A DNA stretch of 64,000 nt from Ostreococcus lucimarinus (Eukaryota): assembly GCA_000092065.1 (NCBI GenBank), contig CP000600.1; one strand, given 5' to 3'. This document shows, piece by piece, positions 164-63,788 of this stretch. The notes under the pieces are model-generated. The model saw nothing but the letters and a program-made list of their open reading frames with translations. It ran no database searches and was not told the origin of the DNA. Both the position numbers and the translations under genes were made by a program. Position 1 is the stretch's first letter; each line of letters begins with the position of its first letter.

Positions 164-205
164 CTCGAACCCTAGCCCTCCAAACCCTAGTTTACCCCGC
201 CCCGC
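164..205. repeat. Degenerate telomere-proximal repeats (ctcgaaccctagccctccaaaccctagttta)
   Basis: Imperfect CCCTA-containing units directly adjoining the perfect array. Confidence 0.7.
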
Positions 206-467: not shown

Positions 468-506
468 CTAACCCTAGTTTCTAACCCTAGTTTCTAACCC
501 TAGTTT
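468..506. repeat. Subtelomeric tandem 13-mer (CTAACCCTAGTTT)x3, telomere-variant-like
   Basis: Three exact tandem copies at 468-480, 481-493 and 494-506. They lie about 230 nt beyond the dynein stop codon, probably inside or next to its 3' UTR. Confidence 0.85.
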
Positions 507-737
507 CAGGGAGGCGGGTGCGGCGACGCGCGCTGGGAGACGACGCGGGGACGACGACGACGTGCGTGCGAGTAGCGCGAACGCTCGTTTTTTTCGTCTT
601 CTGTTGTCTTCACAAAGGAGCAAATCATTTTCTAAGTTTCTACGCTTTCGTTCAACAAGGTGTTGTCAGCGGTGTAATCTTGCGTGGCGGTGATTCGACC
701 ATCGTCGAGCGCGCGGGCCTTCCACGCTTCCCGCGAG

Positions 738-28081: not shown

Positions 28082-29704
<1,623 letters not shown>

Positions 29705-30060
29705 GGCGATCGACGACGATCATTTTCGAATTTATTTCCATCCGTCGAGCGCGCGAACCTTCGCACGAGCGTTGCAATTAATCTCCTAGTATCGAAGATG
29801 AGTGAAAAAAACGCGCCGAGACTCACCACACGGACCACACACCGCACGCGCGTCGTCCCATCCCCGCGCCCGTCGCGCGCCGCGCCGCCTCTTCGCGACG
29901 CCCGTCGCGTGACGCCCCCTCGCATCGAACGCTAGACGTTTGATACTATCGCGGCGCACGAGTTAAAGAAGTGTAAAACGCTCGCACTCTCCTTGCTGCA
30001 CGCATAAGCAGTTTGGTCTCGCCGCTGAACCAACCCTCGCGACCACTTCGCAGATTCATC

Positions 30061-31132
30061 ATGCCGTCCGCGGCGCAACTTAAGAAGCAAGGCTACGCCG
30101 AACGCGTGCACAAGCTTTTGGATAACTATGATACCGCGCTGTTAGTGCACGCCGATAACGTCGGGTCGAAACAGTTCATGGACATTCGCGCGGTACGTCG
30201 ATCGATCGATCGCGCGGGACGCTCACCAAAGCCCTAGAGGGTGACCGAGGGCGTTTCGCTTCGCCGCGCCCGTAAATCTCGACCGCGACGACTGACGGTG
30301 ATGAACTTGTGCGCGCGTCCAGTCGATTCGTCCGGAATCCGTGGTGCTCATGGGTAAGAACACGCTCATGCGCAAGTGCATCTCCAACTATTGCGCCGCC
30401 AAGGGCGACGACACGTGGATGATCCTTTCGAACAAGCTCGTGGGTAACGTCGGTATCATCTTCACCAAGGGTGATTTGTTGGATGTTCGTAAGAAGATTC
30501 AACAATTCGTCGTGCCGGCGCCGGCGCGCGTCGGCGCCATCGCGCCGGTCGAAGTCGTGGTGCCGGCGGGTCCGACTGGGATGGAACCGTCACAAACGTC
30601 CTTCTTCCAAACGCTGAACATCGCGACGAAGATTAACAAGGGTACGATTGAAATCCTCAACGACATCGTCGTGTTACAACCGGGCGACCGTGTTTCATCT
30701 TCTGCCGCTGCATTGCTCGGTAAGATGAAGTTCACGCCGTTCACGTACGGTTTGATCGTCATGGAAGTCTACGACAAGGGCGCCATGTACCCGTCCGCCG
30801 TCTTGGACATCACCAACGAAACTCTCGAGAAGAAGTTTATGTCCGGTGTCGCCCAAGTCGCGTCGCTTTCCTTGGCGTCTGGCTACCCGACCCTCGCGTC
30901 CGTGCCGCACTCCATCGTCAACGCGTACAAGAACGTCCTCGCCATCTCCATTGGTACCGACTACACGTTCGAGTTGGCGCAAAAGGTCAAGGACTACCTC
31001 GCCAACCCGGGCGCTTTCGCGTCCGCGGCTCCGGCTGCGGGTGGCGATGCTGCCGCCGGCGGTGCCGCCAAGGCTGCCGCCGTCGAGGAAGAGGAAGAAG
31101 AGGCCGAAATGGACTTCGACTTGTTCGATTAA
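30061..31132 (+). CDS. RPLP0: 60S acidic ribosomal protein P0 (uL10); join(30061..30192,30323..31132), 130-nt intron
   Basis: Exon 1 reads MPSAAQLKKQGYAERVHKLLDNYDTALLVHADNVGSKQFMDIRA. The intron is gtacgtcg...cgACTGACGgtgatgaacttgtgcgcgcgtccag. Exon 2 continues SIRPESVVLMGKNTLMRK... and ends in the acidic ...EEEEEEAEMDFDLFD tail. Collinear with human RPLP0. Confidence 0.93.
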
Positions 31133-31335
31133 TCTCGAGAAAAGAATGGTGTTCCTTAGGAAATGCTAGACAATTTGTTGTGATCGACGCTAAAGATTTA
31201 CAGCTCAAATCGCGACTCGCCGCGCCTGAAGTTTCGCGAAAAGAAGAAACGAGGAGCATCGCTGGGGGATTGTCCAAAGAATACCATTATCAACGCTAAA
31301 TAATTACAACTGAAAACGCAATTCCATGCGTCTCG

Positions 31336-32568
31336 CTATTCTTCGATAAGCCTGCGCACGCTGCGCAGCTCGGCTTCGACGGCTTCAAGCGAAAAGTCGC
31401 CCGAGGTCGTCGGCGTCGGGGATGGCGCGCTCATCATTTCCCCGAACCCCTCTTCAGCAAGATTTCGCGCCGCGGACGATGAAATCGCAGCGCCAGCGAA
31501 ACTACAATCCGAACCCTCATTCGCGGCGACAAAATCCGTCGCACATCCGTCGAACGTCCCCGTTTCCGACGTCTCGTCAATTTCTTCCAACCGAAGCATC
31601 GCGCTCACGGGCGCCTCTAACTCCACTAAGTTTTTACACAGCTCAATCGTCTCAATCGTGAGCGCTCTTACGAAGTCATGTCTTTCGCGCATCGATTCCA
31701 CCACACTCGCTATCTTTTGCAAAAATTGCTCCGCCGATAGCGAATCGTCGACGTTACCGTTCTCTTGTATATCGTCTTCGAATCTTCCCGAGAGCGTTCG
31801 CGCGGGCGTCGAGCCGCCGAACGCTACCGCGAACGCACCCGGCTCTTCGCTCATCGTTCGCTTGTGCATCGCACGCTTCCTAGCCTGCGCGACGATGCTC
31901 GTACTCTTTGTCGGTTGCACCCAACTCGGCCCTTTGATGACGTCTTTACTCGCCGCACCGACCTCATCACCGCGATACTTTTGAAACGACGCTCTTTGCG
32001 TGACAACATCCATGTCCACGCTCATACCTCGTCCTTTGATCGGCGTCGTTCTCGTCGACAGCGACGTCGGCGGTAGACCGCCGTCGCCGCCCGCTCTCTT
32101 CTCCTTGCTCGCGCCGTGCGAAAATCGCCTATCCGCGAGCTCGCCCACGACACCATCGTCCACGGCTCGCACGTGCGACGCGCTCGCGTACGCGTTCAAC
32201 GCCGTCCCAGAGCTCTTCCCGAACGACGCTTCCTTCTTCGGCGACGTCATCACTCGACTCGCGCTCGCGGCGCCGCGCGGCGACTCCCCGAGCGCGCGCG
32301 CCGACCGTCGCCCCATCCCCGTCCCGACCCGCTCCGCGTTCGTCTGCGCCGCGCGCGACGCGGCGTGTCCATCGCCTCTCCCTCGCGTCGCGTTCGCGCC
32401 TTTCCCGCGCGCTCGCTCGCTCGCGCGCGCCCCGTCGTCGACATCGCCGTCTTTGAATTCGAACGCCCGCGCGTCGTCGTCGTTCGTCGTCGCCGTCGTC
32501 GTCGCCGTCGTCGTCGAGCGCGGCGACGACGCGTCATCGCGATGCGGTTTCGTGCACGCGCATCCCAT
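31336..32568 (-). CDS. Hypothetical protein with N-terminal MGCxC (predicted N-myristoylation/palmitoylation), 410 aa
   Basis: ATG confirmed. N-terminus MGCACTK. No recognisable domain. Low-complexity S/A/T-rich. Confidence 0.4.
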   Translation of the reverse strand: MGCACTKPHRDDASSPRSTTTATTTATTNDDDARAFEFKDGDVDDGARASERARGKGANATRGRGDGHAASRAAQTNAERVGTGMGRRSARALGESPRGAASASRVMTSPKKEASFGKSSGTALNAYASASHVRAVDDGVVGELADRRFSHGASKEKRAGGDGGLPPTSLSTRTTPIKGRGMSVDMDVVTQRASFQKYRGDEVGAASKDVIKGPSWVQPTKSTSIVAQARKRAMHKRTMSEEPGAFAVAFGGSTPARTLSGRFEDDIQENGNVDDSLSAEQFLQKIASVVESMRERHDFVRALTIETIELCKNLVELEAPVSAMLRLEEIDETSETGTFDGCATDFVAANEGSDCSFAGAAISSSAARNLAEEGFGEMMSAPSPTPTTSGDFSLEAVEAELRSVRRLIEE

Positions 32569-32657
32569 GGCGCGTCGTCTTCGCGACGCGACGCGACGCG
32601 ACGCGATGTGATGTTTGTCGCGAGGCGTCGTCGGTCGTTACACGTCGTCGCGCCGCG

Positions 32658-33458
32658 ATGCGCGCGTACTTGGTGCGTCACGCGCAGAGCGAGAACAACG
32701 TCCTGCGCGCGCCCGGGCTGGACAACGCCGAGCGAAGCGCCGACCCCGGGGTCACGGCGAGGGGCTGCCGACAGATGGATGCGCTCGAGGCGCGTTTCGC
32801 GAGACTGCGCGCCGAGACGGCGAGAGGGATCGCGCTGTACGCGTCACCGATGCGTCGGTGCTTGCTCACGGCGAACGCGATGGCGCGAGGGATGCGGACG
32901 CGGGCCAAGGTGATGATCGACGCGCACGAGCACGGCGGATGCTTTCGCGGCGCGCGCGGACGAGACGCGGACGCGGACGGGACGAGTCGAGCGATCGGCG
33001 AGCGCGGGATGACGAGAGATGAGATCGAGAGCGAGTTCGAGCTCGTGGATGCGAGCGATGTGCCGACGATCGGGTGGTGGGACGCCTCGCGAGGGTGCGA
33101 GACGGTGGCGGAGGCGCAGACGCGCGCGCGCGGCGTGGCGAAGTATTTAATGCACAAGGCGCGCGCGATGGCGGCGGGTGAGGAGGAAGAGATGGACGTG
33201 TGCATCGTCACGCACGGAATGTTTATCGATATGCTGCTCAAGACGCTGTTCGATGTGCCGAGAACGCGAGGAAAGCAGGGGGCGCTGTTTTGCTCGCAAA
33301 ACGCGTGCGTGCACGAACTTCATCTTGACATCGCCGAAGACGGCGATTCGGTGGGATTGCAGGTGTTTAACGACGTCACGCACATTCCCGAAGAGGCACG
33401 CTCGGGTGGCACCGTCGACGGGCTCTCGGAGGCGTACACGAACGAAGGTTCGGCGTGA
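32658..33458 (+). CDS. Histidine phosphatase superfamily (phosphoglycerate mutase-like) protein, 266 aa
   Basis: The N-terminal catalytic motif YLVRHAQSENN (RHG-type) and the C-terminal CIVTHGMFID His motif are both present. Confidence 0.7.
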   Translation: MRAYLVRHAQSENNVLRAPGLDNAERSADPGVTARGCRQMDALEARFARLRAETARGIALYASPMRRCLLTANAMARGMRTRAKVMIDAHEHGGCFRGARGRDADADGTSRAIGERGMTRDEIESEFELVDASDVPTIGWWDASRGCETVAEAQTRARGVAKYLMHKARAMAAGEEEEMDVCIVTHGMFIDMLLKTLFDVPRTRGKQGALFCSQNACVHELHLDIAEDGDSVGLQVFNDVTHIPEEARSGGTVDGLSEAYTNEGSA

Positions 33459-33562
33459 GACGCGTTCGAGTCGGCGTAAGTTTCGCCGTAATATTTTACA
33501 GTACATTTGATGTTGCAATATATCTAGGTTTGAGCTAAGCACGAGCGCTTGTCGTTTGCGCA

Positions 33563-34438
33563 CTACAGACGAGCCTTCTTCCCGCTTCGCATGAACGGTC
33601 GCAGGCTCCATTCGATGTCGCAATCGTCCATTTCCACCGTCCCGAGCTTGATTTGGTACAAGCGCATCTCGAACCTCGGACCGATTTCCGTGAGCGCGAC
33701 TGATTTCGCCCCTTTCGGCATCTCATACATGTGATGGCGCAAAGAAATATAATCAGCATCGTTCGCAAACGTCACGACGCGCTTTGACTTCGCCTTGGGC
33801 TCGGGGAACAAGTGCTTCAGCACCGTCGCCGTGCGCTTGCCGAGCGGCGACGTAAAATTTTCTAAAATCAAGTGCGGAAACACCTCGCTGACGTGACCGA
33901 TGTCCTGATCCTTGATATCGTGCCGCATCACCGTGTTGGACAACCCAAAGTAACACGTCGGCCCGAACGGTAGGTGCGAAATCACCAACCCATCCGGCTC
34001 GCCCCGGTGTTCGTGCACCATGACTAAATCCGTGAACCCGCCGTTTCGACACAAATCCACCAAATCCGGCAAGATTTGACTCCCGCGGTTGATCCTTTGC
34101 GACGTGGGAAACAACAACTTGAGCTCTTTCGCGAATTGTTGCAACCGACTCGACGGATCTCGCGACGTCGTCAGAAGCACTCTCGGTTCCCGTTCCGCCG
34201 CCTTCGCGTACTCGTCGTCAATCACCCCTCGCGCCCCGTACGACGCCGTCTTCGCGTCTTCCGCGTGCACTTCCTCCCGCAATCGCGCTTCTTCCTTCCG
34301 CAACTCCGTCGGGATCGCCTTGCCGTCCTCCAGGCACTGTCGAATCGTTCGTTTCTTTTCGTACAGCTCGCGCTCCTTGCCTTCGAGCGATTTTCGATAC
34401 ACAAACTCTCGCCGCAGGCGCGCCGTGCGTCGAAGCAT
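33563..34438 (-). CDS. IMP4: U3 snoRNP protein IMP4 (Brix domain), 291 aa
   Basis: MLRRTARLRREFVYRKS...LLTTSRDPSSRLQQFAKELKLLFP...FEMRLYQIKLGT is a near-identical motif order to yeast/human IMP4. Confidence 0.9.
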   Translation of the reverse strand: MLRRTARLRREFVYRKSLEGKERELYEKKRTIRQCLEDGKAIPTELRKEEARLREEVHAEDAKTASYGARGVIDDEYAKAAEREPRVLLTTSRDPSSRLQQFAKELKLLFPTSQRINRGSQILPDLVDLCRNGGFTDLVMVHEHRGEPDGLVISHLPFGPTCYFGLSNTVMRHDIKDQDIGHVSEVFPHLILENFTSPLGKRTATVLKHLFPEPKAKSKRVVTFANDADYISLRHHMYEMPKGAKSVALTEIGPRFEMRLYQIKLGTVEMDDCDIEWSLRPFMRSGKKARL

Positions 34439-34841
34439 GCCGACGAATCACGGGGCGTTCGAACCCGAACGCGTCGCGCCGTCGCGTCGGTCCGTCGCGC
34501 CGTCGCGTCCGCGTCGACGTCGTCGCCCCGTTCGACGCGTCGCGCACTTCGGCCGCCGCCGCCGCGCGCGACGGCGCGACGTCGCCCGGCGCCGGACGCG
34601 CCGCGCGCGCCGTACGCGACGCGATCGAACCGCCATCAAACGTCGCGCGTCGATCGCATCATAAAACGACGACCGCGTCGAATGATGGCGCCGCGAACCA
34701 TCATTCGCCGCATGGGGTTTACGCGATGGATCGATAAAAATCATCCGCGCGCGATCCGAACGCGCCCGCGTCGTCCCGGCGCGCGCGCGCCCGCGCGGGG
34801 CGTCACAACGCGCGCGCGCTCTCTCGACACACCGATCGATC

Positions 34842-47764: not shown

Positions 47765-48091
47765 CGCTGCGCGACATCACACCTCGCACGATTGTAATCG
47801 TCTAAAAAAGTAACTCGCGACGTCGCCTCGTCGAGCGAGGCGCGTGACCTCCTCCCCGACCGATCCCTTAACGATAAAAAATAATAATCCAAGAGGGTTT
47901 TGATCCCCCGACCTTCTCCGCGTTCGCGGTGACGCGCCACACTCGAGCGCGCGCGCCGGAGTCTGGGCGTTCGCCGATGTAAAGGAGACGCGCTTCCACT
48001 GCGCCATCGGATCGAGATAGCGCTTTATGTCGTATTATACGACATCATACCAACTAAATGATAAAATTTCAAATTTATCGCCCTCGCGTCG

Positions 48092-49045: not shown

Positions 49046-49148
49046 TACGTACGTAGGACTTCAAATATTTGTTACAAAACTGGACTTAGATGATACATAG
49101 TCGGCGCAAGCGTCCGCTGGTGTATTCAATTATTTGAGTGGTATTCTG

Positions 49149-50816: not shown

Positions 50817-50851
50817 CGTCGTCGGCGTGTGCGGCGAATCGTCGGCACGAC

Positions 50852-51148
50852 CGACCGACCGGTCTATACGTATGGCACGCAGTGACGTATACATTATACC
50901 ACGCGCGCGCGTCTCTTTCATACCGTTCGAAACGCGTGGTGTATACACGGCGACCGACCGGTCTATACGTACGGCACGCAGTGACGTATACATTATACCA
51001 CGCGCGCGCGTCTCTTTCATACCGTTCGAAACGCGTGGTGTATACACGGCGACCGACCGGTCTATACGTACGGCACGCAGTGACGTATACATTATACCAC
51101 GCGCGCGCGCGCATCGCTTTCATACCGTTCGAAACGCGCTCTGTACGC
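50852..51148. repeat. Tandem repeat, 3 x 99 bp, in the divergent intergenic region between MscS-like (-) and the coiled-coil gene (+)
   Basis: Unit: cgaccgaccggtctatacgta(t/c)ggcacgcagtgacgtatacattataccacgcgcgcgcgtctctttcataccgttcgaaacgcgtggtgtatacacgg. Starts at 50852, 50951 and 51050 (period exactly 99). Each unit carries the palindromes GTATAC (x2) and TACGTA. A 22-bp direct duplicate, gcgcgtcggcacatcgtcgcgc, follows at about 51171-51215. Confidence 0.9.
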
Positions 51149-51398
51149 GCGGCGACGCGCGACACCACCGACCGCGCGTCGGCACATCGTCGCGCGCGCG
51201 TCGGCACATCGTCGCGCCTCGCGTCCGCGCCCTCGACGCGTCGCGGCGCGCGCGCTTCCCGCGAACGACGCGGAGATTCGCGTCCCGACGCGCGTTCCCA
51301 TCCCGGACGCGAACGACCCGCGCGACGATCGCGTCCGCGACTCGATTTGATTTCGACAACGATTTGATTCCGATTCGAATCGCGAATCGTCGCGCGCG

Positions 51399-52745: not shown

Positions 52746-52877
52746 CGCCGCGTATTTGTTTGTTTGTAATCATCGTCATATGTTATTGGGAAAGTGATTT
52801 GTTTACAGTTGACTTGAGGGGGCGCGCGCTAAAAGTTGGTGGAACATCGTCTGGTGGAATCGTCTGGTGAAGCGAAG

Positions 52878-53900
52878 TCAAGGCAGCGTTTTGATCGTGC
52901 CCGCGTCGCCGAGCTCGCGGAGTCGAGTGAGGAACCGCAATACTTCACCCGAGTCGCGCAGGCTAAACTTGGCCGCGCTCACCTTGGGTGAGCTCGACAC
53001 CAGAAGTCCCACGCCCAAGTGATCGCCCAATTCTTCGTTAATCTCCATAAACGCGTCCTCATCCGTGACGTCGTCGCCGATGTAAATTGTGAAGACGTCT
53101 TCGGGTCTGAACCCCTTCTCGCTCAAGTCTGGGAGCAGGGCGTCTCGCAGGTACGACAGCGCCTTACCCTTATCCCACGCCACGCGTGGCCGAACCTCCC
53201 AAACCATCTTACCGTCGTGCTTGATCAAGCACTCCTCCGAGGCGCAAATCTCATCCACGACGGCTTCGACGCGAGGCCTGAGCTCTTCCGAAACCGCGCG
53301 GTAGTGCGCCGAGACGCAAAACATGTTGTGCTCGATGTTCGTCCCCGGAATGTCCGCACACTTTTCGATCAACTCCTTCGTCACGCGATCCATCACGTCG
53401 CGCGCCCACTGCGCGGGTTGATGCGCCAATTTCTTCTCAATCGGCTCGCCATCCGTCGTCGTCTTCGGCCCCGCGATGTCCAACCCGTGCGACCCGGCGT
53501 AGTACAACTCGTCCAGCTTTACGAACTGCGACACCTTCTGCCTCGATCTACCGCTGATGATCGCCGTGGGAAACCTTTTCGCGCACTGCCGCACCGCTTC
53601 CCGCATCTCGTCGCTCATGAACGCCTTATCCGGCTCCGGCACGATTGGCGCCAGCGTCCCGTCGTAGTCTAAAAACACCGTCAACAGTTTCCCCTCCGCC
53701 GCGTCGACAAACTTGTTTTCCTCGTCGCACGCGTTCGGGTGATACCCTCGCCACTCCTCCTCATCGTTCCAATACTTTTCAATCATCCCGATCGAATCGC
53801 TTCGCTTCATTCCCTGCTCCGCGCGCGGCATCTTTCCGAACGGCGGCCCCCGCGTGCGCACCTCCAGCGGCCCCCCGCGCGACATGTCCTTGTACGACAT
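52878..53900 (-). CDS. TPP: Trehalose-6-phosphate phosphatase (HAD family), 340 aa
   Basis: LTVFLDYDGTLAPIVPEPDKAFMSDEMREAV (DxDGT motif I) ...SGRSR...IYIGDDVTDEDAF (motif III), collinear with plant TPPs. The tracked start is GTG; first ATG (MSYKDMS) at 53900. Confidence 0.85.
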   Translation of the reverse strand: MSYKDMSRGGPLEVRTRGPPFGKMPRAEQGMKRSDSIGMIEKYWNDEEEWRGYHPNACDEENKFVDAAEGKLLTVFLDYDGTLAPIVPEPDKAFMSDEMREAVRQCAKRFPTAIISGRSRQKVSQFVKLDELYYAGSHGLDIAGPKTTTDGEPIEKKLAHQPAQWARDVMDRVTKELIEKCADIPGTNIEHNMFCVSAHYRAVSEELRPRVEAVVDEICASEECLIKHDGKMVWEVRPRVAWDKGKALSYLRDALLPDLSEKGFRPEDVFTIYIGDDVTDEDAFMEINEELGDHLGVGLLVSSSPKVSAAKFSLRDSGEVLRFLTRLRELGDAGTIKTLP

Positions 53901-54199
53901 CGCGCGCGCGCGCTTCGCGCGTCCGCGCACGCGTCCGCGCGCGCCGTTCGCGAGGGACGACCGCGCTCACGTCGAGCCTCGCCGAGATCGTCCCTCGCGT
54001 CGATATCGCGCCGTCCGTCGCGGAAACGAATCGAATCGACGGTCGATCGATCGTTCGTTCGCGATCGATCGACGACGCGCGGGCGAATCGAATCGATCGT
54101 TCGCGTTCGACCGCGCGCCGATCGCGACGATAAAACGGCGCGCGAAACCACCGAATCGAACGCGCGCGCGCGATCGAACGCCGCGCGCGCGTCTCTGAC

Positions 54200-54236
54200 G
54201 GATGGATGGATGGATGGATGGATGGATGGAATCGCC
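54200..54236. repeat. (GGAT)8-9 microsatellite at the 5' end of the NF-YA ORF
   Basis: Seen directly: gatggatggatggatggatggatggatggaat. Confidence 0.9.
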
Positions 54237-55183
54237 CGTCGCCGTCGACCGCGCGCGTCTCTCGTCGACGCGACGCCCGCGCGCGACGCTCGAAACGTCG
54301 ACGATCCGGGATCGCGATCCGTAACGCGATCCGTGACGCGACACGACGCGGACGCGATACCGATTCATCCATCGATCCATCCGCGTCTCTGATTCGTCGT
54401 CGACGGATCGAGCGTCGCGCGGCGCGTCGCGCGCGTCGTTCGATGCGGCGATTCGCGACGACGCGCGCGGCGTCGTCGCGCGAGGCGTCGACGTCGCGCG
54501 CCGCGAGCGACGCGCGCGACGCGCGACGCGCGGACGTCGAGACGACGCGCGCGTTCGGGGGGGTGCTCGGGCTGCCGACGGCGGCGACGACGCGCGCGAC
54601 GGCGACGCGCGACGGCGGCGACGCGCGACGGAGCGTCGCGGTGACGACGGGGGGATTCGCGGGGGTCGGAGAGGCGCGAGCGCGCGCGGGGGGGGGGAGG
54701 GAGGCGGACGCGCGCGCGAGGACGACGGCGAGCGCGAGACGCGCGGGCGACGCGGGAGACGTCGTCGCGCGAGCGTACGCGCAGTTGGCGCAGTATCCGC
54801 GCGTGCTGTTGCCGACGATGGACGCGGCGGTGTACGTGAACGCGAAGCAGTACGACGCCATCGTGCGGCGGCGGCAGAAGCGCGCGAGGGCGAACGCGAC
54901 GAGGACGCCGGGCGTCGTCAACGCGAAACATCCGTCGCGGTCGGCGCACGCGAAGAACAGGATTCGCGGGAAGAATGGGAAATATTTGACCCGCGATGAA
55001 TTGCTGCGCGGGCTGGGGGGGCCCGAGGGACGGGCGCGCGCGGAGGCGCGCGAGCGAGAGATCGCCGAGCGCGAGGCGAAGCGCGTCGAACGCGCCGCGG
55101 TGCGGGAAGCCACCAAGGCGCGCGCGCGCGCGCAGCGCGCCGCCGCCGACGCCGTGCGCGCGGCGAAAAAATCTAGAAAGTGA
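54206..55183 (+). CDS. NFYA: Nuclear transcription factor Y subunit A (NF-YA/HAP2, CCAAT-binding); 5' end uncertain (ATG at 54206 or 54443)
   Basis: AAVYVNAKQYDAIVRRRQKRAR...NAKHPSRSAHAKNRIRGKNGKYLT matches the NF-YA core (YVNAKQYHRILKRRQARAKLE...[23 protein letters not shown]). The upstream part is low-complexity R/A/T-rich. Confidence 0.7.
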   Translation: MDGWMDGWNRPSPSTARVSRRRDARARRSKRRRSGIAIRNAIRDATRRGRDTDSSIDPSASLIRRRRIERRAARRARRSMRRFATTRAASSREASTSRAASDARDARRADVETTRAFGGVLGLPTAATTRATATRDGGDARRSVAVTTGGFAGVGEARARAGGGREADARARTTASARRAGDAGDVVARAYAQLAQYPRVLLPTMDAAVYVNAKQYDAIVRRRQKRARANATRTPGVVNAKHPSRSAHAKNRIRGKNGKYLTRDELLRGLGGPEGRARAEAREREIAEREAKRVERAAVREATKARARAQRAAADAVRAAKKSRK

Positions 55184-55295
55184 GCGCGCGGCGCGGCGTC
55201 TCGCGGCGCGGTCGCCGACGCGCGCGGATTTGTAACGCGCGTTCGTCGTCTCGCCGCCGTCTCGCCGCGTCGTCCCGCAGACCTCGCCTCGCGCG

Positions 55296-56903
55296 ATGCC
55301 TCGCCCGCGCGCCGCGCGCCTCGCCGCGTTCGACGTCGCCGGCGTCGTCGCTCTCGTCGCCGTCGCCGCGGCGTGGTGCGTCGTCCTGTCCACGGCGTAC
55401 GGCGGCGAAAACCGCTGCGACATGAGCTACATGTACCCGAGTTTCTTCCCGGTGACGAACGTCGCGCTGGCGTCGCCCGCGCACGCGCTGTATCGCTACC
55501 GCGACGCGCGCGCGCGCGATGACGACGTCGACGATCGCGCGCGCGCGAGCGGCGACGCGAGCGCGTGCGTGGTGATCAACGTCTTCGTCCCGGGGACGGG
55601 GGGCGGTTACGGGCAAGCGCGAAGCGCGGCGAGCGGGACGCTCGAGAGCGAAGGATGCCGCGTCGAGCACTACGCCCTGGATTTCGCGGAAGAACTGAGC
55701 GCGTATAATGGAATGCTACTCGCGAGACAGGCGAAAAGCGTGGCGCGGGCGCTGGATGGGTTGAGGACGCTCGAGCGCGCGAGGACGGAAAGACGCGTCG
55801 TGGCGGGATGGAGCGTCGTGGGACACAGCGCGGGAGGATTGGCGGCGATGGAAGCCGCGGCGAGCGCTCTGGGAAGTGAGTTAGGGCTGACGATAGTGAA
55901 TCTAGCGACGCCGAGCGCGTGGAATCCGGTGAGTCTGACGTTGACGCAGCGCGCGCGAGAGGCGGGCGTGCGGCGACGTTGGCGAACGAGCGACGCGAGA
56001 CGGAGCGTGGCGCTCGTCAGCGTCGTCGGTGGCGAGCGCGATCGGCAGGTGAGCTCGAGCCCGATGGGTTTTGTCGATGATTGGGTAGAAGAAGGGCTCG
56101 GTGTGAGCGCGAGCGCGAGCACGGCGTCGCGGGTGGGCGTGTCGGCGGATCATCGATGCGCGGCTTGGTGCAAACAGTTAATCGTCGCGATCTCGCGTGG
56201 ATTCGCCGAGGCGTTTCCACGATCGAAGGTTCTCACCGCGCACCAGCGCGCGCGCGCGTTTCGCGACGCACTTGGTGATAAAGACGCGGCGCGCGCGCCG
56301 TCACCGACTTTCGGGGTGCCCGCGCGAGCGTACGAGGCGACGCAAGAGCGCACGCCGAGCGCTCTGGCGGGCGTCGTCGCCAACGTATTAGCGCCGCGGT
56401 CGGTGATGAGCGCCTTCGCGTTCGCGCTCATCGCACACGCAGCATCACCGAGCATACTTCGTGAGCGCGTCGTGGAATCCGTGATCGCGTCGCTCGCGGT
56501 CTACGTCGCGAGTGGGTGGATAGCGAATCGCGCGTTCGACGTTCGCGGCGACGTCAGACGCGCGTTGACGACGTGCATGGTGCTCGCGCACGTCCCATCT
56601 CTCATCGCGTGGGCGCACCACGTTCTTCGCACCTTACCGACGTATGGTTTTCACGCATTGGTGCCGCCGTTCGGTGCGATGGACGCCGTCGCGCTCTGCT
56701 TCGCCGCGGCGTCGACGCGTTTCGGCGCCATCGCTCGCGATCAGTCGTCGGGCGCGTCGCGCGCACGTCAAGTCGCGTGGTGTCTCGCCGCCGGCGCCGC
56801 CGCACCGGGCAACGTCGGTCTCATCCACATCGCCGGCGCCGTCGTTCACTGCGCGGAGACGCTCCGTCTTCCTCGCGCGTCGCTGCCGAAGAAAGTCGCG
56901 TGA
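55296..56903 (+). CDS. GPI inositol-deacylase PGAP1/Bst1-like alpha/beta hydrolase membrane protein, 535 aa
   Basis: N-terminal TM, CDMSYMYPSF, VFVPGTGGGYGQARS, lipase pentapeptide GHSAGG, multiple C-terminal TM segments. Same order as PGAP1 (CRMSYMYPSY, LFIPGNAGSYKQVRS, GHSMGG). Confidence 0.65.
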   Translation: MPRPRAARLAAFDVAGVVALVAVAAAWCVVLSTAYGGENRCDMSYMYPSFFPVTNVALASPAHALYRYRDARARDDDVDDRARASGDASACVVINVFVPGTGGGYGQARSAASGTLESEGCRVEHYALDFAEELSAYNGMLLARQAKSVARALDGLRTLERARTERRVVAGWSVVGHSAGGLAAMEAAASALGSELGLTIVNLATPSAWNPVSLTLTQRAREAGVRRRWRTSDARRSVALVSVVGGERDRQVSSSPMGFVDDWVEEGLGVSASASTASRVGVSADHRCAAWCKQLIVAISRGFAEAFPRSKVLTAHQRARAFRDALGDKDAARAPSPTFGVPARAYEATQERTPSALAGVVANVLAPRSVMSAFAFALIAHAASPSILRERVVESVIASLAVYVASGWIANRAFDVRGDVRRALTTCMVLAHVPSLIAWAHHVLRTLPTYGFHALVPPFGAMDAVALCFAAASTRFGAIARDQSSGASRARQVAWCLAAGAAAPGNVGLIHIAGAVVHCAETLRLPRASLPKKVA

Positions 56904-57135
56904 AGTGGCGAAGTCGCCTCGCGTCGACGATTTGCTCGACGCGACATTAGACGTACACATTAGACGCGCCATCACGACCGATGGCGCCTCGAAGGACTGA
57001 AAGTAGAACATAGACATAGAACTACGAGCGTTTCATCGTCCCTGAATCGACGCTCCGCGTGAAACATCCGCCGCGGCGTCCGTCGCCTCCGTAAAGCGCC
57101 GCCTCGCGCGTCTCGCGCCGCACAGCGCGCCTCGC

Positions 57136-58377
57136 ATGTTCGCCCGCGCGCGCGCCCTCGCCCTCACCGGCGCCGCGGCCGCGACCGCGACGATGCCGCT
57201 CGTCTCGCACGCGCGCGCGCGCGACGACGCGCGACGCGTCGCGCGCGCGCCGCCCCACGACGCGCGCGAGCTCCTGCTCGTCCAAGCCGTCTTCAGACAC
57301 GGCGACCGCACGCCCATCGCCGGCCTCGGCGCCGGACTCGAGGACCTCGAAGAGACGTGGCGACGATTACTGCCGTCCGCGGCGGACGAAGAGCGGCTGC
57401 GTCGGCTCGCGCGCGTGCGGTCGGAGATGGAGGCGACGTGCGTCCCGCGAGGCGCCGGCGGTTGGGAGGGACGGCTGACGACGCGAGGCGCGACGCAGAT
57501 GCGAGCGTTCGGACGAGAGATCATACGAGAGTGGTTGATCGCGCAAGAGTTTTTGTCGAACGATTTCGCGCGCGCGGTGGCGAAAGGAGAGGTGAAGGTG
57601 CGGTCGACGGCGGCGTCGAGGTGCGTGGCGAGCGCGGCGAACGCGCTCGCGGGCGGATGGCCGGATGCGTGGGAAAACGGTGGTGGAGGCTCGCCTTTGA
57701 TCATCGAGGTTCGAGAGAAAGAGCGAGAGACGATGTTTCCGAAACCGGGATCGGCGTGCGATAGGCTGAGTGAGGTATTTCGAGGCGCGATGGCGTCGAA
57801 CGACGAAAAGTTTACGCACGACGAGACGTTGGCTCGCTTGCGCGAGTCGATCGAAACGGCGCGGGAGAAAAAGGCGGGGTTGCTGGAAGTATGGGACCCA
57901 CTGCAATGTCGCATCAATCACGATTTGCCCCTGCCGCGCGGCGTGACGAAAGATCAAGTGCGGTCTTTGTTGACGATGATGGAGGACAGACATTTCGCGA
58001 CGTTCACGAGCCCGCTCGCGAACGGCATCATGGGTACGCAACTGCTCCGTGAAATTTGCGAAGAAATGGGCGAACACGGCGGAAAAGTCAAGCTAAGTCT
58101 TTACGCGGGTCATGATTCGACGATCATGGCGCTCTTCTCCGCGCTCGGGACGCTCGGATCGACGCTCACGACGTGGCCGCCTACGGGAAGTTCGTTGATT
58201 TTCGAGACGTGGCGCATGAAGGATGGATCCGTCGGCGTGCGCGCGGTGTATAACGGCGAGCCTATGGCGTTGACGCCGAAATCGCGCGAACGCGATGGAT
58301 TGACCTCGTACGCGGACTTCAAGGCGTACGTGAAGACGCGCGTGCCGGAAGACTACGTCGCCGCTTGCAAACTCTAG
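57136..58377 (+). CDS. Histidine acid phosphatase (branch-2 histidine phosphatase; lysosomal/prostatic acid phosphatase-like), signal peptide, 413 aa
   Basis: LLLVQAVFRHGDRTP (RHGxRxP) near the N-terminus and LYAGHDSTIMALFSALG (HD motif). N-terminal hydrophobic leader. Confidence 0.75.
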   Translation: MFARARALALTGAAAATATMPLVSHARARDDARRVARAPPHDARELLLVQAVFRHGDRTPIAGLGAGLEDLEETWRRLLPSAADEERLRRLARVRSEMEATCVPRGAGGWEGRLTTRGATQMRAFGREIIREWLIAQEFLSNDFARAVAKGEVKVRSTAASRCVASAANALAGGWPDAWENGGGGSPLIIEVREKERETMFPKPGSACDRLSEVFRGAMASNDEKFTHDETLARLRESIETAREKKAGLLEVWDPLQCRINHDLPLPRGVTKDQVRSLLTMMEDRHFATFTSPLANGIMGTQLLREICEEMGEHGGKVKLSLYAGHDSTIMALFSALGTLGSTLTTWPPTGSSLIFETWRMKDGSVGVRAVYNGEPMALTPKSRERDGLTSYADFKAYVKTRVPEDYVAACKL

Positions 58378-58426
58378 TTTATCCTTCTCGTTGTCGCTAT
58401 CTTATTTCTTGCTATTGAATGTGTTG

Positions 58427-60328
58427 CTATTTCTTTTTCGTTTTCGCCTTCTTCACTTTCTTCGGAATTTTCGTCTTGCGCTTCTCCGCCGCCGCTTGCT
58501 TCTGCAACTTGGCCGCCGCCTTTCGTTCCGCCTTGACGGCGTCCTTGTCCACGACTTCCTTGGGGAATCTCCGTCTGCCCCCGCCATTCTCGGAATCCTC
58601 GTCGGAGTCCGATCCGTCTTCGCTGTCAAAATCGCCCGATTCGTCGTCGTTTTCGTCCTCCTCGTCTTCGTCCTCGTCCACGACGTCGAGTTTCTTCGTC
58701 ATCAACAGCGTCGGCGTCGTGCGCACGCTGCTCAAATCGTCCGCCATGCCTGTGATGGTTTGATAATAAATTCCTTCGCTCTCTCCTTTGCCTTGAATCA
58801 AGCGCTTTTGATCGCGCTCAAACAGATCGACTTCGTCCAGAGCGCGCGGAATAAACGCCTGATGGAACACGTTGGCTTGAATCTCAGCCTCGGCGCGGCG
58901 TTCCATCATCTCGTCGTCGAACTGGGAGTCGGGATCGGCCGAGTTCAGCGCGTTGAGCTGGGCGTTTACGCGCTTGAGTTCAACCGCGTGCTCCTCCGCG
59001 GACTCACTCAGCGCCTCGAGCACGGCCTCCATGTTGTCATCGTTGATCGCCGGGTCGGTGACAAAGTCGAACAATTCGCGAACCGTCGGCACGGCGACGT
59101 CTTGCTTGGCGAAGTATTGAATCACGTGAAGCAAATCTTCGCGCAGGAACTCCAAGCACCGCGGGTGGTCCTGATCGACGCTTTGCGAGACGTCGATGAT
59201 CCAAATGTGTCCGTCGTGAAACAACAAGTTGTACTCGCTCAGATCCGCGTGCACGAGACGACACTTTTGGTACATCATGCGCACGTCGACGATGAGTTCG
59301 GTGAATAACGAACGCATCTTCTTGACTGATATGTCCGCATCTCGCAATCGCGGCGCGGCGATGCCATCGTTCCCGATGAATTCCATCACCAAGACGTGCG
59401 AGCGAAGCATCTCCACCGCGGGCACGCGCAAGCCCGCCTCCTTCAACCGAATCAAGTTCCGCATCTCCTTCTCCGCCCACGTCTGCACCATTTTCCGCGG
59501 ATTCTTCTTTGAATACCCATTCCGCCATCTCCAATCCCCGCTGACGTATCTATCGCGATCCTTGAACACTAAAATTGACGTCTTATACACCTTGACCGCG
59601 AAGTCCGTCACTTCTCTCGCGCCAGTTTCCCCGACGACGACGTCTTTTCGCGCGTGATACACGTTCGCCTCCTTCCCCGTCGACACGCATCCGTGAATCT
59701 CCGTGAACGTCTCCCTGGACAGCATCTTGAACAAAATCAACATCGTCCGCGGATCCAACGCTTGCTCCACCGTCGCGCGGTCTTCCTTATCCTTATTCAA
59801 CGACATCGATTTATCCTCCTTCCGTCTCGCCTCTTTCATCGCGTTCGTCACCTTGGTCTCCGCGCGCGTCGTCCTCGTCGTCCTCGCGCCCGCGCCCGCG
59901 CCCGCGTCGCCGCCGTTCGCGCTTTTCCCTTTCCCTCCAGCGAACGTCACCGCGCGCGTCCTGTTCCCCGCCCCCCCGTTCGCGTTCGGCCTCGCCACGT
60001 TCGCTCGCGTGAGCTTCGCCGCCGCCGACCCCGGCGCCGCGCGCGCGTCCCGCGTCGACGCCTCCCCCCTGTGCGCGCGCATGTCATCCAGCGCGTCCAG
60101 CGCGTCTAAGCGATCGTTCACGTCGTCGTCGTACGCCTCGTCGTCGTCGCGCGCCTCGTCGTGCGCCGTCCAGCCGTCGTTTTCGTCGTTTTCGTCGTCC
60201 TCGTCCGCGGCGGCGGCGTCAAAAACCTCGCGCGTGCGCCCCGACAGCGCCTCGCGAATCGCCAGAAGCGCGTCCTCGCGCTCGCGCATCGCGTTAGCTT
60301 CGTCCTCGACCGCGGTGCGCGGCTCCAT
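58427..60328 (-). CDS. RIOK1: Serine/threonine-protein kinase RIO1, about 633 aa
   Basis: FTEIHGCVSTGKEANVYHA, LVHADLSEYNLLFHDGHIWIIDVSQSV, and an acidic/basic KKAKTKKK tail. RIO1-type, not RIO2. The N-terminal 380 aa of the tracked ORF are antisense garbage. Start taken at MEPRTAVEDEANAM (60328). Confidence 0.88.
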   Translation of the reverse strand: MEPRTAVEDEANAMREREDALLAIREALSGRTREVFDAAAADEDDENDENDGWTAHDEARDDDEAYDDDVNDRLDALDALDDMRAHRGEASTRDARAAPGSAAAKLTRANVARPNANGGAGNRTRAVTFAGGKGKSANGGDAGAGAGARTTRTTRAETKVTNAMKEARRKEDKSMSLNKDKEDRATVEQALDPRTMLILFKMLSRETFTEIHGCVSTGKEANVYHARKDVVVGETGAREVTDFAVKVYKTSILVFKDRDRYVSGDWRWRNGYSKKNPRKMVQTWAEKEMRNLIRLKEAGLRVPAVEMLRSHVLVMEFIGNDGIAAPRLRDADISVKKMRSLFTELIVDVRMMYQKCRLVHADLSEYNLLFHDGHIWIIDVSQSVDQDHPRCLEFLREDLLHVIQYFAKQDVAVPTVRELFDFVTDPAINDDNMEAVLEALSESAEEHAVELKRVNAQLNALNSADPDSQFDDEMMERRAEAEIQANVFHQAFIPRALDEVDLFERDQKRLIQGKGESEGIYYQTITGMADDLSSVRTTPTLLMTKKLDVVDEDEDEEDENDDESGDFDSEDGSDSDEDSENGGGRRRFPKEVVDKDAVKAERKAAAKLQKQAAAEKRKTKIPKKVKKAKTKKK

Positions 60329-60481
60329 GACGCGTCGCGCGCGCGCGCGGGCGCGAAATGCGGCGACGGCGCGACCCGGCGAACGTCGAATCGGCACATC
60401 GCGCCGCGCGCGCCGTCGCCGGGACGCGCCGCTCGCGCCGTGGCGCGCGCGCGCGAGCGCGAACGCGACGCTCGACGCGCG

Positions 60482-61912
60482 ATGACGGACGCCGAGGACG
60501 TCGAACTGCGCGGCGCGGCGGAAATCGCGCGGAAACAGCGCGAGGAGCTGGTGCGCGAATTCGAGTCGCGACGACGTTTGCGCGCGACGCACGCGCCGAC
60601 GCACGATGCGGACGTGCGCGCGATGCTGCGAAAGTACCGCGAGCCGATCACGCTGTTCGGCGAGCGAGAGAGCGAGCGGAGGGATCGATTGCGCGCGCTG
60701 TTGGCGTCGTTGGACGCGCGAGACGGCGGCGAACTCGACGACGGCGCGGGGACGCGAACGGCGACGGATAAATACGGCGCCACGATCGTCGACGAGGGAG
60801 AATATAACGCGCACGCGACGCAGAAGGAGACGTTTTACACCGAAGGCACGGAACGGTTGCTGGAGTGCCGAATAGACATCGCGGAGTGGTCGCTGCCGCG
60901 GGCGGCGAAGCGCGTGGCGACGCAACGCGAGGCGAGAGGTAAGGGAGGGAGAAAAGACGAACGGGCGACGATCGATGCGGTGGTGGCGTCGACGTCGGGG
61001 TTCCAGGCGCAGTGCAGCGAGATCGGCGACGCGTCGCGACCGATCTGTGAGGTGAAGTTTTATAACGGAGGGAGAAACGCGGTGAGCGCGAGTTGGAGCG
61101 GGGAGGCGCGCAAGTGGGCGTGCGACGTAGAGGGAGGAAAATTGACCTCCGAGCTCGTCATTCGAGCGAGTGATCATCGAATCACTGGAATCGACGCGTT
61201 CGACGCGGGCGACGGTCGCGCGCGCATCGTCACCGGGCACGCCGACGGCTCTGCGGCGATTTGGAACGCCGACGGAAGTCGCGCGGCGGAGTTGAAAGGC
61301 CACGCCTCTCGATGCGGGCGCGTGGCGTTTCATCCACACGGGGGAAAGTACGTCGCCACCGCGTCCTTCGACGCCACGTGGCGGCTTTGGAGCGCGGAGA
61401 CCGGGGAAGAGTTGTTGTGTCAAGAGGGCCACGCCAAGGAGGTGTACGACGTCGCGTTCCACCCCGACGGTTCGCTCGCCGCGTCCGTGGGCTTAGACGC
61501 CGTCGGGCGCGTGTGGGATCTGCGCATCGGCAAATCCATCGCCGTCTTACGCGGTCACGTCAAGCAAATCCTCTCCGTGGACTTTTCTCCCAACGGCTAC
61601 CACGTCGTCACCGGCGGCGACGACCGCACCGTCAAGTCGTGGGACTTGCGCAAATCCGCCGAGTGCGCGTACACCAACGCCGCGCACTCCGCCCTGGTCT
61701 CTTGCGTCAGGTACGAAAAAACCTCATCCAACGGCGCCTTCTTCACCAGTTCCAGCTACGACGGTTCCGTCGTCGTCTACTCCGCGCGCGACTTCGCCCC
61801 GCACAAGAAGATCGGCGACGGCGCCGCGGGCAAGCTCACCGCCGTCGACGTCGCCGGCGACGCCCTCATCCTCAGCGGTTTCGACCGCACCCTCAAGTAT
61901 TACACCAAGTGA
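60482..61912 (+). CDS. PRPF4: U4/U6 small nuclear ribonucleoprotein Prp4 (WD40), 476 aa
   Basis: N-terminal PRP4/SFM motif MLRKYREPITLFGE, followed by seven WD repeats (GHxxxV...WD). Confidence 0.85.
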   Translation: MTDAEDVELRGAAEIARKQREELVREFESRRRLRATHAPTHDADVRAMLRKYREPITLFGERESERRDRLRALLASLDARDGGELDDGAGTRTATDKYGATIVDEGEYNAHATQKETFYTEGTERLLECRIDIAEWSLPRAAKRVATQREARGKGGRKDERATIDAVVASTSGFQAQCSEIGDASRPICEVKFYNGGRNAVSASWSGEARKWACDVEGGKLTSELVIRASDHRITGIDAFDAGDGRARIVTGHADGSAAIWNADGSRAAELKGHASRCGRVAFHPHGGKYVATASFDATWRLWSAETGEELLCQEGHAKEVYDVAFHPDGSLAASVGLDAVGRVWDLRIGKSIAVLRGHVKQILSVDFSPNGYHVVTGGDDRTVKSWDLRKSAECAYTNAAHSALVSCVRYEKTSSNGAFFTSSSYDGSVVVYSARDFAPHKKIGDGAAGKLTAVDVAGDALILSGFDRTLKYYTK

Positions 61913-62053
61913 AGCGTTCTCGCGCGTCGATTTGTTCGCGCAAATCACCTTTGTGTAAAAAAATGAGCCACAGCGACCCTTCGCGACGCTTTCGACGGGT
62001 CGACACGCGCGCCACATCTCGTCGCCGCACCGCGTCGCGCGCCGTCTCGCGCG

Positions 62054-63247
62054 ATGGTGCTCGCGACGGCGACGACGCCGACGCCGCGCGCGCCGTCTCG
62101 GTCCGCCCCGCGCGCGGCGTCGCGCGCGACGGCGCGACGATTCGCCGCCGCGCGACGATTCGGCGGCGACGACTCGAATCGACGCGCGCGCGCCGCCGCG
62201 CGCGCCGACGGCGGCGGCGACGCGGCGGCGGACGACGCGCTCGACGCGCTCGAGCTGCTGCGCGCGCGAGGGCGCGCGAGGGCGTCGAGCGCGACGACGC
62301 GCGACGACGCGCGCGCGGCGAGGGTGTGCCTGGTGGGCGTCGGACCGGGCGACCCGGGCTTGCTCACGCTTCGCGCGTATCAGCTCATGCAGACCGCGGA
62401 CGTGGTGCTGTACGATCGATTGGTGTCGAACGAGATCCTGAATCTCGCGCGCGCGGAGGCGCGGATGGTGTACGTGGGGAAGCGAGCGGGGTACCACACG
62501 CGGACGCAGGAGGAGATACACGAACTGCTGGCGGCGTTCGCGGACGCCGGGGCGACGATCCTGCGGTTGAAGGGCGGGGATCCGCTGGTGTTCGGGCGCG
62601 GCGGGGAGGAGTTCGAGTTCCTGCGCGAGCACAATCCGAACGTGCGCGTGGAGGTGGTTCCGGGAATCACCGCGGCGGCGGGCGTCGGGAGCGAGCTCGG
62701 CATACCGCTCACGCACCGCGGGGTGGCGACGTCGGTGCGGTTGTTGACCGGACATCTGCGCGAGGGCGCGGGGTCGCGCGAGGACGCCACGGGCGCGGCG
62801 AGCGATCCGGTGGATTTCGCGGTGACGAGCGCCGACGTCGAGACGACGCTCGTCGTCTACATGGGTCTGGGCACGCTCCCGAAGCTCAGCGAAAAGCTCA
62901 TCGCGAGCGGATTTCCGGCCGATATGCCCGCGGTGGCGATCGAGCGCGGCACGACCGTGGACGAACGTCGAGTGTTTAGCTCCATCGAGCACCTACCCGA
63001 AGCCGCGGCGGCGTGCGAGCTCGTGTCGCCGACGCTCCTCATCGTCGGTCGCACGGTGACGCTCAGCCCGCACTGGCCGTACGCCGCGGACGAATCCTCG
63101 TACGATCCCAAGTGGGTCGAACAGCGCGGCTCGCCGCGCGCGGCCGACGACGTGGACGATTGGCGCGCGTGGCTCGACTTGGACGTCGATTTCGCCTCGT
63201 CGCGCCCTCGCGCCGTCGCGCGCGAGATTCACGTCGACGCGTTCTAG
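62054..63247 (+). CDS. Uroporphyrinogen-III C-methyltransferase (SUMT/CobA-type, siroheme branch) with plastid transit peptide, 397 aa
   Basis: VCLVGVGPGDPGLLTLRAYQLMQTADVVLYDRLV...GKRAGYHTRTQEEIHELL...ILRLKGGDPLVFGRGGEE...VVPGITAAAGV is the canonical TP-methylase fold. The S/T/A/R-rich N-terminal 80 aa form the transit peptide. Confidence 0.9.
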   Translation: MVLATATTPTPRAPSRSAPRAASRATARRFAAARRFGGDDSNRRARAAARADGGGDAAADDALDALELLRARGRARASSATTRDDARAARVCLVGVGPGDPGLLTLRAYQLMQTADVVLYDRLVSNEILNLARAEARMVYVGKRAGYHTRTQEEIHELLAAFADAGATILRLKGGDPLVFGRGGEEFEFLREHNPNVRVEVVPGITAAAGVGSELGIPLTHRGVATSVRLLTGHLREGAGSREDATGAASDPVDFAVTSADVETTLVVYMGLGTLPKLSEKLIASGFPADMPAVAIERGTTVDERRVFSSIEHLPEAAAACELVSPTLLIVGRTVTLSPHWPYAADESSYDPKWVEQRGSPRAADDVDDWRAWLDLDVDFASSRPRAVAREIHVDAF

Positions 63248-63396
63248 CCCTCGAACGGTCGCGCGCGTTTGTATCATAATCTTAGTCCGTTCCGCGCGCC
63301 GGTCGTCACGCGCCGTGCACGCTCGCGATTCGATTCGCTCCGCGTCCGCGTCCGCGTTCGCGCCTCGCGCCGTCGCCACTTCGCGCCTCCCTGGCC

Positions 63397-63788
63397 ATGT
63401 CCGCCGCCGAGGAAGACGCCGCCGTGCGCGAGCCCTTGGACCTGATCCGCCTCGCCCTCGACGAGAAGGTTTACGTCAAGCTGCGCGGCGACAGAGAGGC
63501 CAGAGGGCGCTTACACGTGCGTCGTCGCCGCGAATCGACGCGACGCGATCGCGAATCGAACGAGCGATCGCTCGACCGACGACTGACGACTCTTCGCCGT
63601 GGTTTCGCGCGCAGGCGTACGATCAACACTTGAACATGATCCTCGGTGACGTGGAGGAAGTGATCACGAGCACGGAGACGGACGAAGAGACGTTCGAGGA
63701 GTTTACGAAGACGACGAAGAGAAGTGTGCCCTTCTTGTTCATCAGAGGCGACGCGGTGACGCTGGTGTCGCCGCCGCTGCGGAGTTAG
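63397..63788 (+). CDS. LSM3: U6 snRNA-associated Sm-like protein LSm3, 97 aa; join(63397..63516,63615..63788), 98-nt intron
   Basis: Exon 1 reads [40 protein letters not shown]. The splice is |GTGCGT...cgACTGACGactc...gcag|. Exon 2 reads [21 protein letters not shown]...[20 protein letters not shown]. Collinear with human LSM3 ([45 protein letters not shown]...). Confidence 0.88.

Follow-up and report, generated by a model that had tools for sequence, protein, structure and literature searches.

Introns and intron-containing genes of the window

The window analyzed here is a 64,000-nucleotide (nt) stretch at the left end of a 549,133-bp chromosome of the mamiellalean green alga Ostreococcus lucimarinus CCE9901 (GenBank assembly GCA_000092065.1, contig CP000600.1), and our subject is the set of introns that it contains and the splicing signals that these introns share. 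Because it begins with 23.4 copies of the telomere repeat AACCCTA (positions 1 to 164), the window represents the telomere-proximal 64 kb of the chromosome; three copies of a 13-nt subtelomeric repeat, CTAACCCTAGTTT, follow at positions 468 to 507. Coding-potential mapping, Pfam scans, and comparison with the annotated syntenic region of Ostreococcus tauri gave about 35 protein genes and one tRNA gene, and 87% of the window is coding. Intron density is low. Eight introns are distributed over seven genes, and the remaining genes (about 28) are single open reading frames (ORFs), whose length agrees with the O. tauri model in the 15 cases with an ortholog in the retrieved loci. The chromosomal setting comprises a telomere start, a low intron density, and, at 1 to 14 kb, a dynein gene with a GC content of 50%.

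We searched for ACTGAC[GT] with a donor upstream and an AG downstream and then translated across each candidate; spliced gene models were built from the intron coordinates given in a preliminary description of this DNA. Eight introns were found whose removal restores a continuous, homologous reading frame (branch A denotes the branch point adenosine, and its distance is given to the 3' end of the intron).

14250 to 14308, minus strand: dynein heavy chain gene, 59-nt intron following codon 115 (phase 0); donor site GTGCGTC, branch site GACTGACGC, branch A at 23 nt, tail ACGTAG
17397 to 17570, minus strand: PSMB6 (proteasome beta-1) gene, 174-nt intron following codon 12 (phase 0); donor site GTGCGTC, branch site GACTGACGT, branch A at 34 nt, tail GCGCAG
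30193 to 30322, plus strand: RPLP0 gene, 130-nt intron following codon 44 (phase 0); donor site GTACGTC, branch site GACTGACGG, branch A at 27 nt, tail GTCCAG
34910 to 35220, plus strand: PsbO gene, first intron (311 nt), following codon 23 (phase 2); donor site GTGCGTG, branch site GACTGACGA, branch A at 34 nt
35324 to 35604, plus strand: PsbO gene, second intron (281 nt), following codon 57 (phase 0); donor site GTGCGTC, branch site GACTGACGA, branch A at 32 nt
37467 to 37559, minus strand: RabGGTA (Rab geranylgeranyltransferase alpha) gene, 93-nt intron following codon 30 (phase 0); donor site GTGCGCC, branch site GACTGACTG, branch A at 37 nt, tail CGATAG
37946 to 38049, plus strand: NSI/GNAT2-like acetyltransferase gene (NSI), 104-nt intron following codon 78 (phase 0); atypical donor site GTGAGAC, branch site GACTGACGA, branch A at 29 nt, tail GGATAG
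63517 to 63614, plus strand: LSm3 gene, 98-nt intron following codon 40 (phase 0); donor site GTGCGTC, branch site GACTGACGA, branch A at 28 nt, tail GCGCAG

All eight introns begin with GT and end with AG, the acceptors being YAG or RAG. The donor is GTGCGT in five introns and GTGCGC, GTACGT, and GTGAGA in one each; it lies within one mismatch of GTGCGT in seven of the eight, while that of NSI has two mismatches. Both ACTGAC and the longer GACTGAC are present in every intron, and the full octamer GACTGACG is present in all except that of RabGGTA, in which the final base is T. Counted from the branch A to the final base of the intron, the distances are 23, 27, 28, 29, 32, 34, 34, and 37 nt. 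Seven introns are in phase 0, and each of the eight interrupts its gene within the first 115 codons. Their lengths are between 59 and 311 nt, and their GC content is 64 to 70%. No intron that violates this grammar was detected within the window.

The preliminary description is accurate in most of these respects. Its donor list, its branch site (ACTGACG, once ACTGACT), and its length range agree with our measurements, as does its account of an intron-poor region with a 13.5-kb dynein exon (13,509 nt, positions 741 to 14249). It counted nine introns but named eight; the coordinates of these eight are exact, and no ninth was found. The span that it assigned to them (30193 to 63614) leaves out the dynein and PSMB6 introns, and the distance from branch point to AG, put at 24 to 46 nt, is 23 to 37 nt when measured from the branch A. 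Its 5' bias holds, although the count is eight of eight introns within 115 codons rather than seven of nine within 120.

Introns of the U12 type, which are removed by the minor spliceosome, have the donor /RTATCCTT and the branch site TCCTTAAC near the acceptor. Nothing similar is seen in the donors or branch regions of the eight introns, and the assignment was rejected.

Contigs and proteins in which the introns are absent

Intron-less contigs were retrieved by exact-protein look-up from public sequencing runs and Joint Genome Institute (JGI) samples. They are short, are 99 to 100% identical to the flanking exons, and break exactly at the predicted junctions of five of the eight introns. For RPLP0, four contigs (L001 to L004) align to 28163-30192 and 30322-31132. 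For PsbO, contigs L005 to L009 align to 34805-34909, 35220-35323, and 35602-36582 and lack both introns. For PSMB6, contigs L010 to L013 align to 17670-17571 and continue from 17397, and for LSm3, contigs L014 to L018 align up to 63517 and resume at 63612. The aligned blocks overlap by 1 to 4 nt at the junctions, as expected from bases repeated there. Five introns are thus removed at exact GT..AG junctions. We infer that the intron-less contigs are derived from RNA, since the introns are still present in genomic contigs from these populations.

Four of the spliced models match O. lucimarinus CCE9901 RefSeq proteins exactly from end to end, namely, RPLP0 (XP_001422456.1), PsbO (XP_001422458.1), LSm3 (XP_001422469.1), and proteasome beta-1 (XP_001422631.1). 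In the last of these genes, the intron is located precisely at the boundary between the propeptide Gly and the catalytic Thr1, and exon 1 (17571 to 17606) encodes only the 12-residue propeptide.

The other three introns are supported by their reading frames and by homology. (i) In the dynein gene, the reading frame differs between exon 1 (14653 to 14309) and exon 2 (13.5 kb), and the exon 1 peptide has 48 to 93% identity to five database proteins. In a relative (contig L032), exactly this junction is interrupted by a 67-nt intron (GAAGAG|GTGCAA .. CGACTGACGC .. CATAG|GAACGC), and the dynein ORF follows. The only match to a query with the dynein N terminus was an ORF called on genomic DNA, with its start downstream of the junction. 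(ii) In RabGGTA, the intron is in frame yet contains stop codons, and exon 1 encodes the N terminus MHGRRR, which presumably resembles the MHGR start of animal and yeast RabGGTA. (iii) In NSI, the unspliced frame shifts and runs into the TAG of the acceptor, and the spliced junction DPYRHAQGACE|VDITLQ aligns gap-free with the continuous DPYAYVQSDKELDVVLG of relatives. A joined NSI and dynein N-terminal query for junction-spanning transcript proteins returned only two distant matches, low-complexity words having filled the candidate list.

Additional observations concern two of these genes. The dynein heavy chain gene (4,618 codons, 741 to 14653, minus strand; Pfam domains DHC_N1, DYH2-5-8_CC, and AAA modules) directly adjoins the telomere, and its GC content of about 50% (0.59 at third codon positions) compares with 56 to 71% (0.7 to 0.8) in neighboring genes. 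Wickstead and Gull (2007) called the presence of axonemal inner-arm IAD-1 dyneins in the flagella-less Ostreococcus surprising. The first exon of NSI, which probably encodes a transit peptide, contains a 24-nt repeat in 4.5 copies (37703 to 37810) and is placed 12 nt apart by the population contigs L021 and L022. This offset may reflect a difference in copy number, and it could account for the absence of the exact spliced NSI protein from the database.

Conservation and turnover of the introns within Ostreococcus

Five intron positions (RPLP0, both in PsbO, RabGGTA, and LSm3) are orthologous in O. tauri. The intron sequences are only 53 to 63% identical between the two species, compared with 78 to 85% nucleotide identity in the flanking coding DNA, whereas a GT[GA]CGT donor and the CTGAC core persist in the O. 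tauri introns at a similar distance from the acceptor. Population contigs L021 to L030, which are 99.3 to 99.8% identical to the window, are too close to inform on constraint.

In RPLP0, the intron of O. tauri reads GTACGTG .. TACTGACC, and that of another relative, represented by contig L035, reads GTAAGT .. TGACTGACT. PsbO intron 1 is kept in O. tauri (GTGCGTG .. AGCTGACCG) and in L035 (TTACTGACG), and so is intron 2 (GTACGTC .. GACTGACTT and GTACGA .. TGACTGACC, respectively). The LSm3 intron of O. tauri is GTGCGTG .. GACTGACGA .. GCGCAG. For RabGGTA, the exon 1 ORF, the junction, and the signals are kept in O. tauri (GTGCGTC .. GACTGACGA), in a further relative, L033 (GTGCGCG .. TGACTGACGG), and in L035 (GTGCGTG .. 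GTGCTGACGG).

Not all positions are stable. The NSI intron is found at the same site in L035, with the donor GTGCGTG and the branch site TCTGAC, while the gene is uninterrupted in O. tauri and in L033; this pattern reflects an intron gain or loss within the genus. RabGGTA has one intron in O. lucimarinus and in O. tauri. On contig L033 (about 1 to 770, reverse strand), two introns that conform to the grammar can be read in the RabGGTA sequence, and an apparent third is suggested by translation.

Such lineage-restricted introns (that of NSI and the two extra ones of RabGGTA in one relative) are what might be seen if the introns were copies of a mobile family, like the introner elements of Micromonas, with motifs that are common by descent. 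The IE-C elements of Micromonas RCC299 are likewise short (about 67 nt) and carry the same GACTGACG branch motif (PMC3879977). However, comparison of all introns against each other and against the window gave only simple-sequence matches, such as (CGCGA)n, and the intron lengths are spread from 59 to 311 nt. The five positions shared with O. tauri, at which the intron bodies have diverged and the signals have been kept, are also at odds with this origin. Because no intron body is shared within the window, we exclude an introner-type origin of the common motifs and assign it a very low residual probability.

Distribution of the motifs in introns and exons

The individual motifs are not enriched in the window. 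ACTGACG occurs 10 times (11.7 expected) and GTGCGT occurs 50 times (67.9 expected). A loose pattern of donor, branch site, and AG gives 10 matches, compared with 7.6 +/- 2.8 in composition-matched Markov simulations, and a strict composite pattern gives 7 matches, compared with 1.6 +/- 1.3. There is also a complete decoy antisense within the dynein ORF (plus strand), consisting of GTGCGT at 6455, ACTGACG at 6567, and a TAG ending at 6632, although its distance from branch to AG is long (61 nt) and no G precedes its ACTGAC. These numbers would be compatible with the view that the motifs co-occur by chance in a GC-rich genome and that some of the introns are not real but stem from downstream Met starts, frameshifts, or assembly errors.

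The placement of the motifs speaks against this view. Seven of the 10 ACTGACG sites fall within the 1,250 nt of validated introns, i.e., 1% of the strand-specific sequence (binomial P of about 1e-12), and eight of the nine GACTGAC[GT] sites are intronic (P for the placement of the two motifs, about 1e-12 to 1e-15). The six ACTGAC[GT] sites outside introns (+6567, +24179, -25729, -26975, -19869, and -742, with the sign indicating the strand) lie on the strand opposite a continuous ORF, within SDHA in its reading frame, or at the stop codon of the dynein gene. For five introns, an artifact is already refuted by junctions that are spliced in independent contigs; four spliced proteins are identical to RefSeq entries, and the other three introns are backed by an upstream exon, a junction, and signals that are conserved across species. 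Thus, chance co-occurrence appears extremely improbable.

The introns were initially said to be readable by eye. This is true of the branch octamer in combination with the coding context, but not of the donor or the loose grammar, which occur at chance level. On the sense strand of coding sequences, GTGCGT is found 23 times, compared with 24.4 expected from synonymous-codon shuffles. ACTGAC is found once (4.6 expected; P = 0.04, uncorrected), and GACTGAC is not found at all. Since the donor is common in exons and the branch octamer is nearly confined to introns, the octamer is the discriminating element. We offer only tentatively, as a doubtful extension, the idea that the branch octamer rather than the 5' splice site carries intron identity and that coding exons have been purged of it. 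The depletion of ACTGAC on the sense strand possibly reflects avoidance of cryptic branch sites, a matter that the window is too small to decide. It is accompanied by intron turnover (two lineages have the NSI intron and two lack it; the introns of RabGGTA number one here and three in a relative), and all introns, whether gained or retained, follow the same grammar. Should the depletion hold genome-wide, it would be direct evidence that cryptic branch sites are selected against in a eukaryote with few introns. This apparent exclusion from sense exons and the presence or absence of introns among Ostreococcus lineages are the only leads from our analysis that are mildly new.

Splicing signals under constraint

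We conclude that the eight introns are almost certainly ordinary U2-type spliceosomal introns of the canonical class found outside the outlier chromosome of O. lucimarinus, with signals maintained by purifying selection. In this densely coding, intron-poor genome, the few introns retained are located near the 5' ends of genes, several of which are housekeeping or highly expressed genes. Purifying selection would keep the 5' splice site at GTGCGT(G/C) or a close variant, GACTGAC(G) at 23 to 37 nt before the acceptor, and the acceptor itself at YAG or RAG. From established spliceosome biology, the donor would be recognized by U1 and then by U6, and the branch site would be recognized by SF1/BBP and then by U2. 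Because the donor hexamer is common in exons, most of the specificity would be attributed to the branch octamer. Irimia and Roy (PMC2483917) hypothesized that genomes with few introns evolve splicing machinery that is stringent, possibly of low abundance, and dependent on near-consensus sites.

Several points weigh against this conclusion. The RNA origin of the intron-less contigs is putative, and the dynein, RabGGTA, and NSI introns are supported by frame logic, homology, and cross-species conservation and not by transcript contigs. Moreover, the grammar admits exceptions. GTGAGA is the donor of one intron, relatives show GTAAGT, GTACGA, and GTGCAA donors and GCTGAC and TCTGAC branch sites, and about 13% of the confirmed introns in the published data lack ACTGAC. 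Finally, a C at donor position +4 would, by our own reckoning, mismatch the 5' end of a standard U1. Given this mismatch and the standard U1 reported in Mamiellales, the conclusion does not account for the +3G/+4C of the donor or for the G's that flank ACTGAC.

This last point touches on a different explanation, in which the splicing machinery itself is modified, either through compensated small nuclear RNAs (snRNAs) or through a second spliceosome that serves these introns as opposed to the degenerate introns of the outlier chromosome. The donor GTGCGT does depart from GTAAGT at +3/+4, a modified machinery was raised explicitly by Irimia and Roy in 2008 (PMC2483917), and U1 has been able to coevolve with an atypical donor in Entamoeba. 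However, Roy and Bowser (2022) reported a single strong U1 candidate per species, with the standard pairing region, in five Mamiellales, and an earlier screen is reported to have found the snRNAs of O. tauri in single copies. A search with Rfam identified no snRNA in the window. We therefore consider a modified machinery unlikely, though less so than an introner origin or chance, and favor standard U2-type splicing with constrained signals. Two spliceosome components are encoded in the window itself, the U4/U6 small nuclear ribonucleoprotein (snRNP) protein PRP4 (60482 to 61909, plus strand), which is intronless, and LSm3 (63397 to 63785, plus strand), which has the one intron described above.

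Consequences for gene annotation

The preliminary description had warned that annotation by longest ORFs would miss N termini, and truncated or misstarted metagenome calls are indeed found at every intron-containing gene. Compared with the spliced proteins, metagenome gene calls have 260 rather than 313 amino acids for RPLP0, 50 rather than 97 for LSm3, 163 rather than 241 for NSI, 267 to 271 rather than 317 for RabGGTA, and 4,499 rather than 4,618 for dynein. Even the curated O. tauri RabGGTA model (258 amino acids) lacks the first exon with MHGRRR. Metagenome databases contain many prokaryote-style or longest-ORF calls made on Ostreococcus DNA, and these would be repaired by scanning with the branch motif as an anchor.

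Other features of the window

Spacers between genes are very short throughout the window; for example, a stop codon at 39424 has a neighboring start near 39334 to 39395. RabGGTA (start at 37649, minus strand) and NSI (start at 37712, plus strand) are divergent, with 62 nt between them, and both have a 5' intron. A second intron considered in the DNA-alkylation-repair gene was rejected, as the frame change at about 39.4 kb marks a separate 125-amino-acid gene on the same strand.

The tRNA gene (47885 to 48013, minus strand; 45 bits with Rfam) has a 58-nt insert after the anticodon loop, whose sequence is UUUACA, and probably encodes tRNA-Val(UAC) with an intron at the canonical position. ARAGORN predicted no tRNA in the window, although Rfam finds this one. 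Upstream of an MscS-like gene, a 99-nt tandem repeat (50852 to 51138; 2.9 copies, 96% matches) is in frame with a long ORF but has an atypical composition and no coding potential.

Comparison with known splicing systems

The splicing code described here was already published for O. lucimarinus in 2008, and our finding is a correct rediscovery of it. Among introns confirmed by expressed sequence tags outside chromosome 2, Irimia and Roy (PLoS Genet, PMC2483917) found ACTGAC in 87% and GACTGACG in 66.5%, together with an atypical 5' consensus GTGCGTG, a peak of 20 to 35 nt in the distance from branch to AG, and a weak CGCAG preference at the 3' end. Species, signals, and low intron density agree, and the eight introns are instances of this canonical class. 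ACTGAC is present in eight of eight and GACTGACG in seven of eight, and only the GTGAGA donor and the 37-nt distance lie at the edges of the published range.

Within the Mamiellales, GYGCGY donors are widespread (Roy and Bowser, 2022). Canonical Micromonas introns have the donor AG|GTGCGT and the branch motif NCTGAC (Verhelst et al., 2013; PMC3879977), and, as in the window, there are few introns per gene outside low-GC outlier regions. However, the distance from branch motif to acceptor is 43 to 52 nt in that genus, compared with 23 to 37 nt here. The same study cited the Ostreococcus motif GACTGACG for the IE-C introners. The IE-C elements of Micromonas commoda RCC299 resemble the window introns in being short and in having the identical extended branch motif, but they are 221 sequence-related copies at nonorthologous sites, whereas the window introns have no common body and are mostly at positions conserved between Ostreococcus species.

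Mamiellophyceae introns of the outlier chromosome (BOC; chromosome 2) share the organism and the GT-AG ends with those of the window, as well as a short length with the 59-nt dynein intron, whose length falls within their 40 to 65 nt. BOC introns are AT-rich and dense and have no discernible branch motif, whereas the dynein intron has GTGCGTC, GACTGACGC, and a GC content of 66%. With regard to the features that define BOC1 (40 to 65 nt, low GC, no branch motif), all eight introns are GC-rich and contain GACTGAC, and only the dynein intron is short.

In yeast, about 5% of genes have introns. In the window, 7 of 35 genes have them, including those for RPLP0, PsbO, and proteasome and LSm subunits, which fits the 16 to 20% of O. 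lucimarinus genes, enriched among highly expressed genes, reported by Lanier et al. (2008; PMC2367439). The resemblance to hemiascomycete yeasts extends to an intron-poor genome, near-invariant donor and branch sites, a 5' bias, and an enrichment in ribosomal protein genes and other highly expressed genes. The preliminary description had spoken of a yeast-like, constrained code, and the narrow grammar of donor, branch site, and acceptor is comparable in strictness to that of yeast. However, the consensus sequences differ (GTATGT and TACTAAC in Saccharomyces cerevisiae; GTGCGT and GACTGACG in O. lucimarinus), and the likeness is one of independent evolutionary convergence. The window thus presents a textbook case of the convergence of intron-poor lineages on strict splicing signals, one that has been in the literature since 2008 and to which our analysis adds confirmation and local detail.

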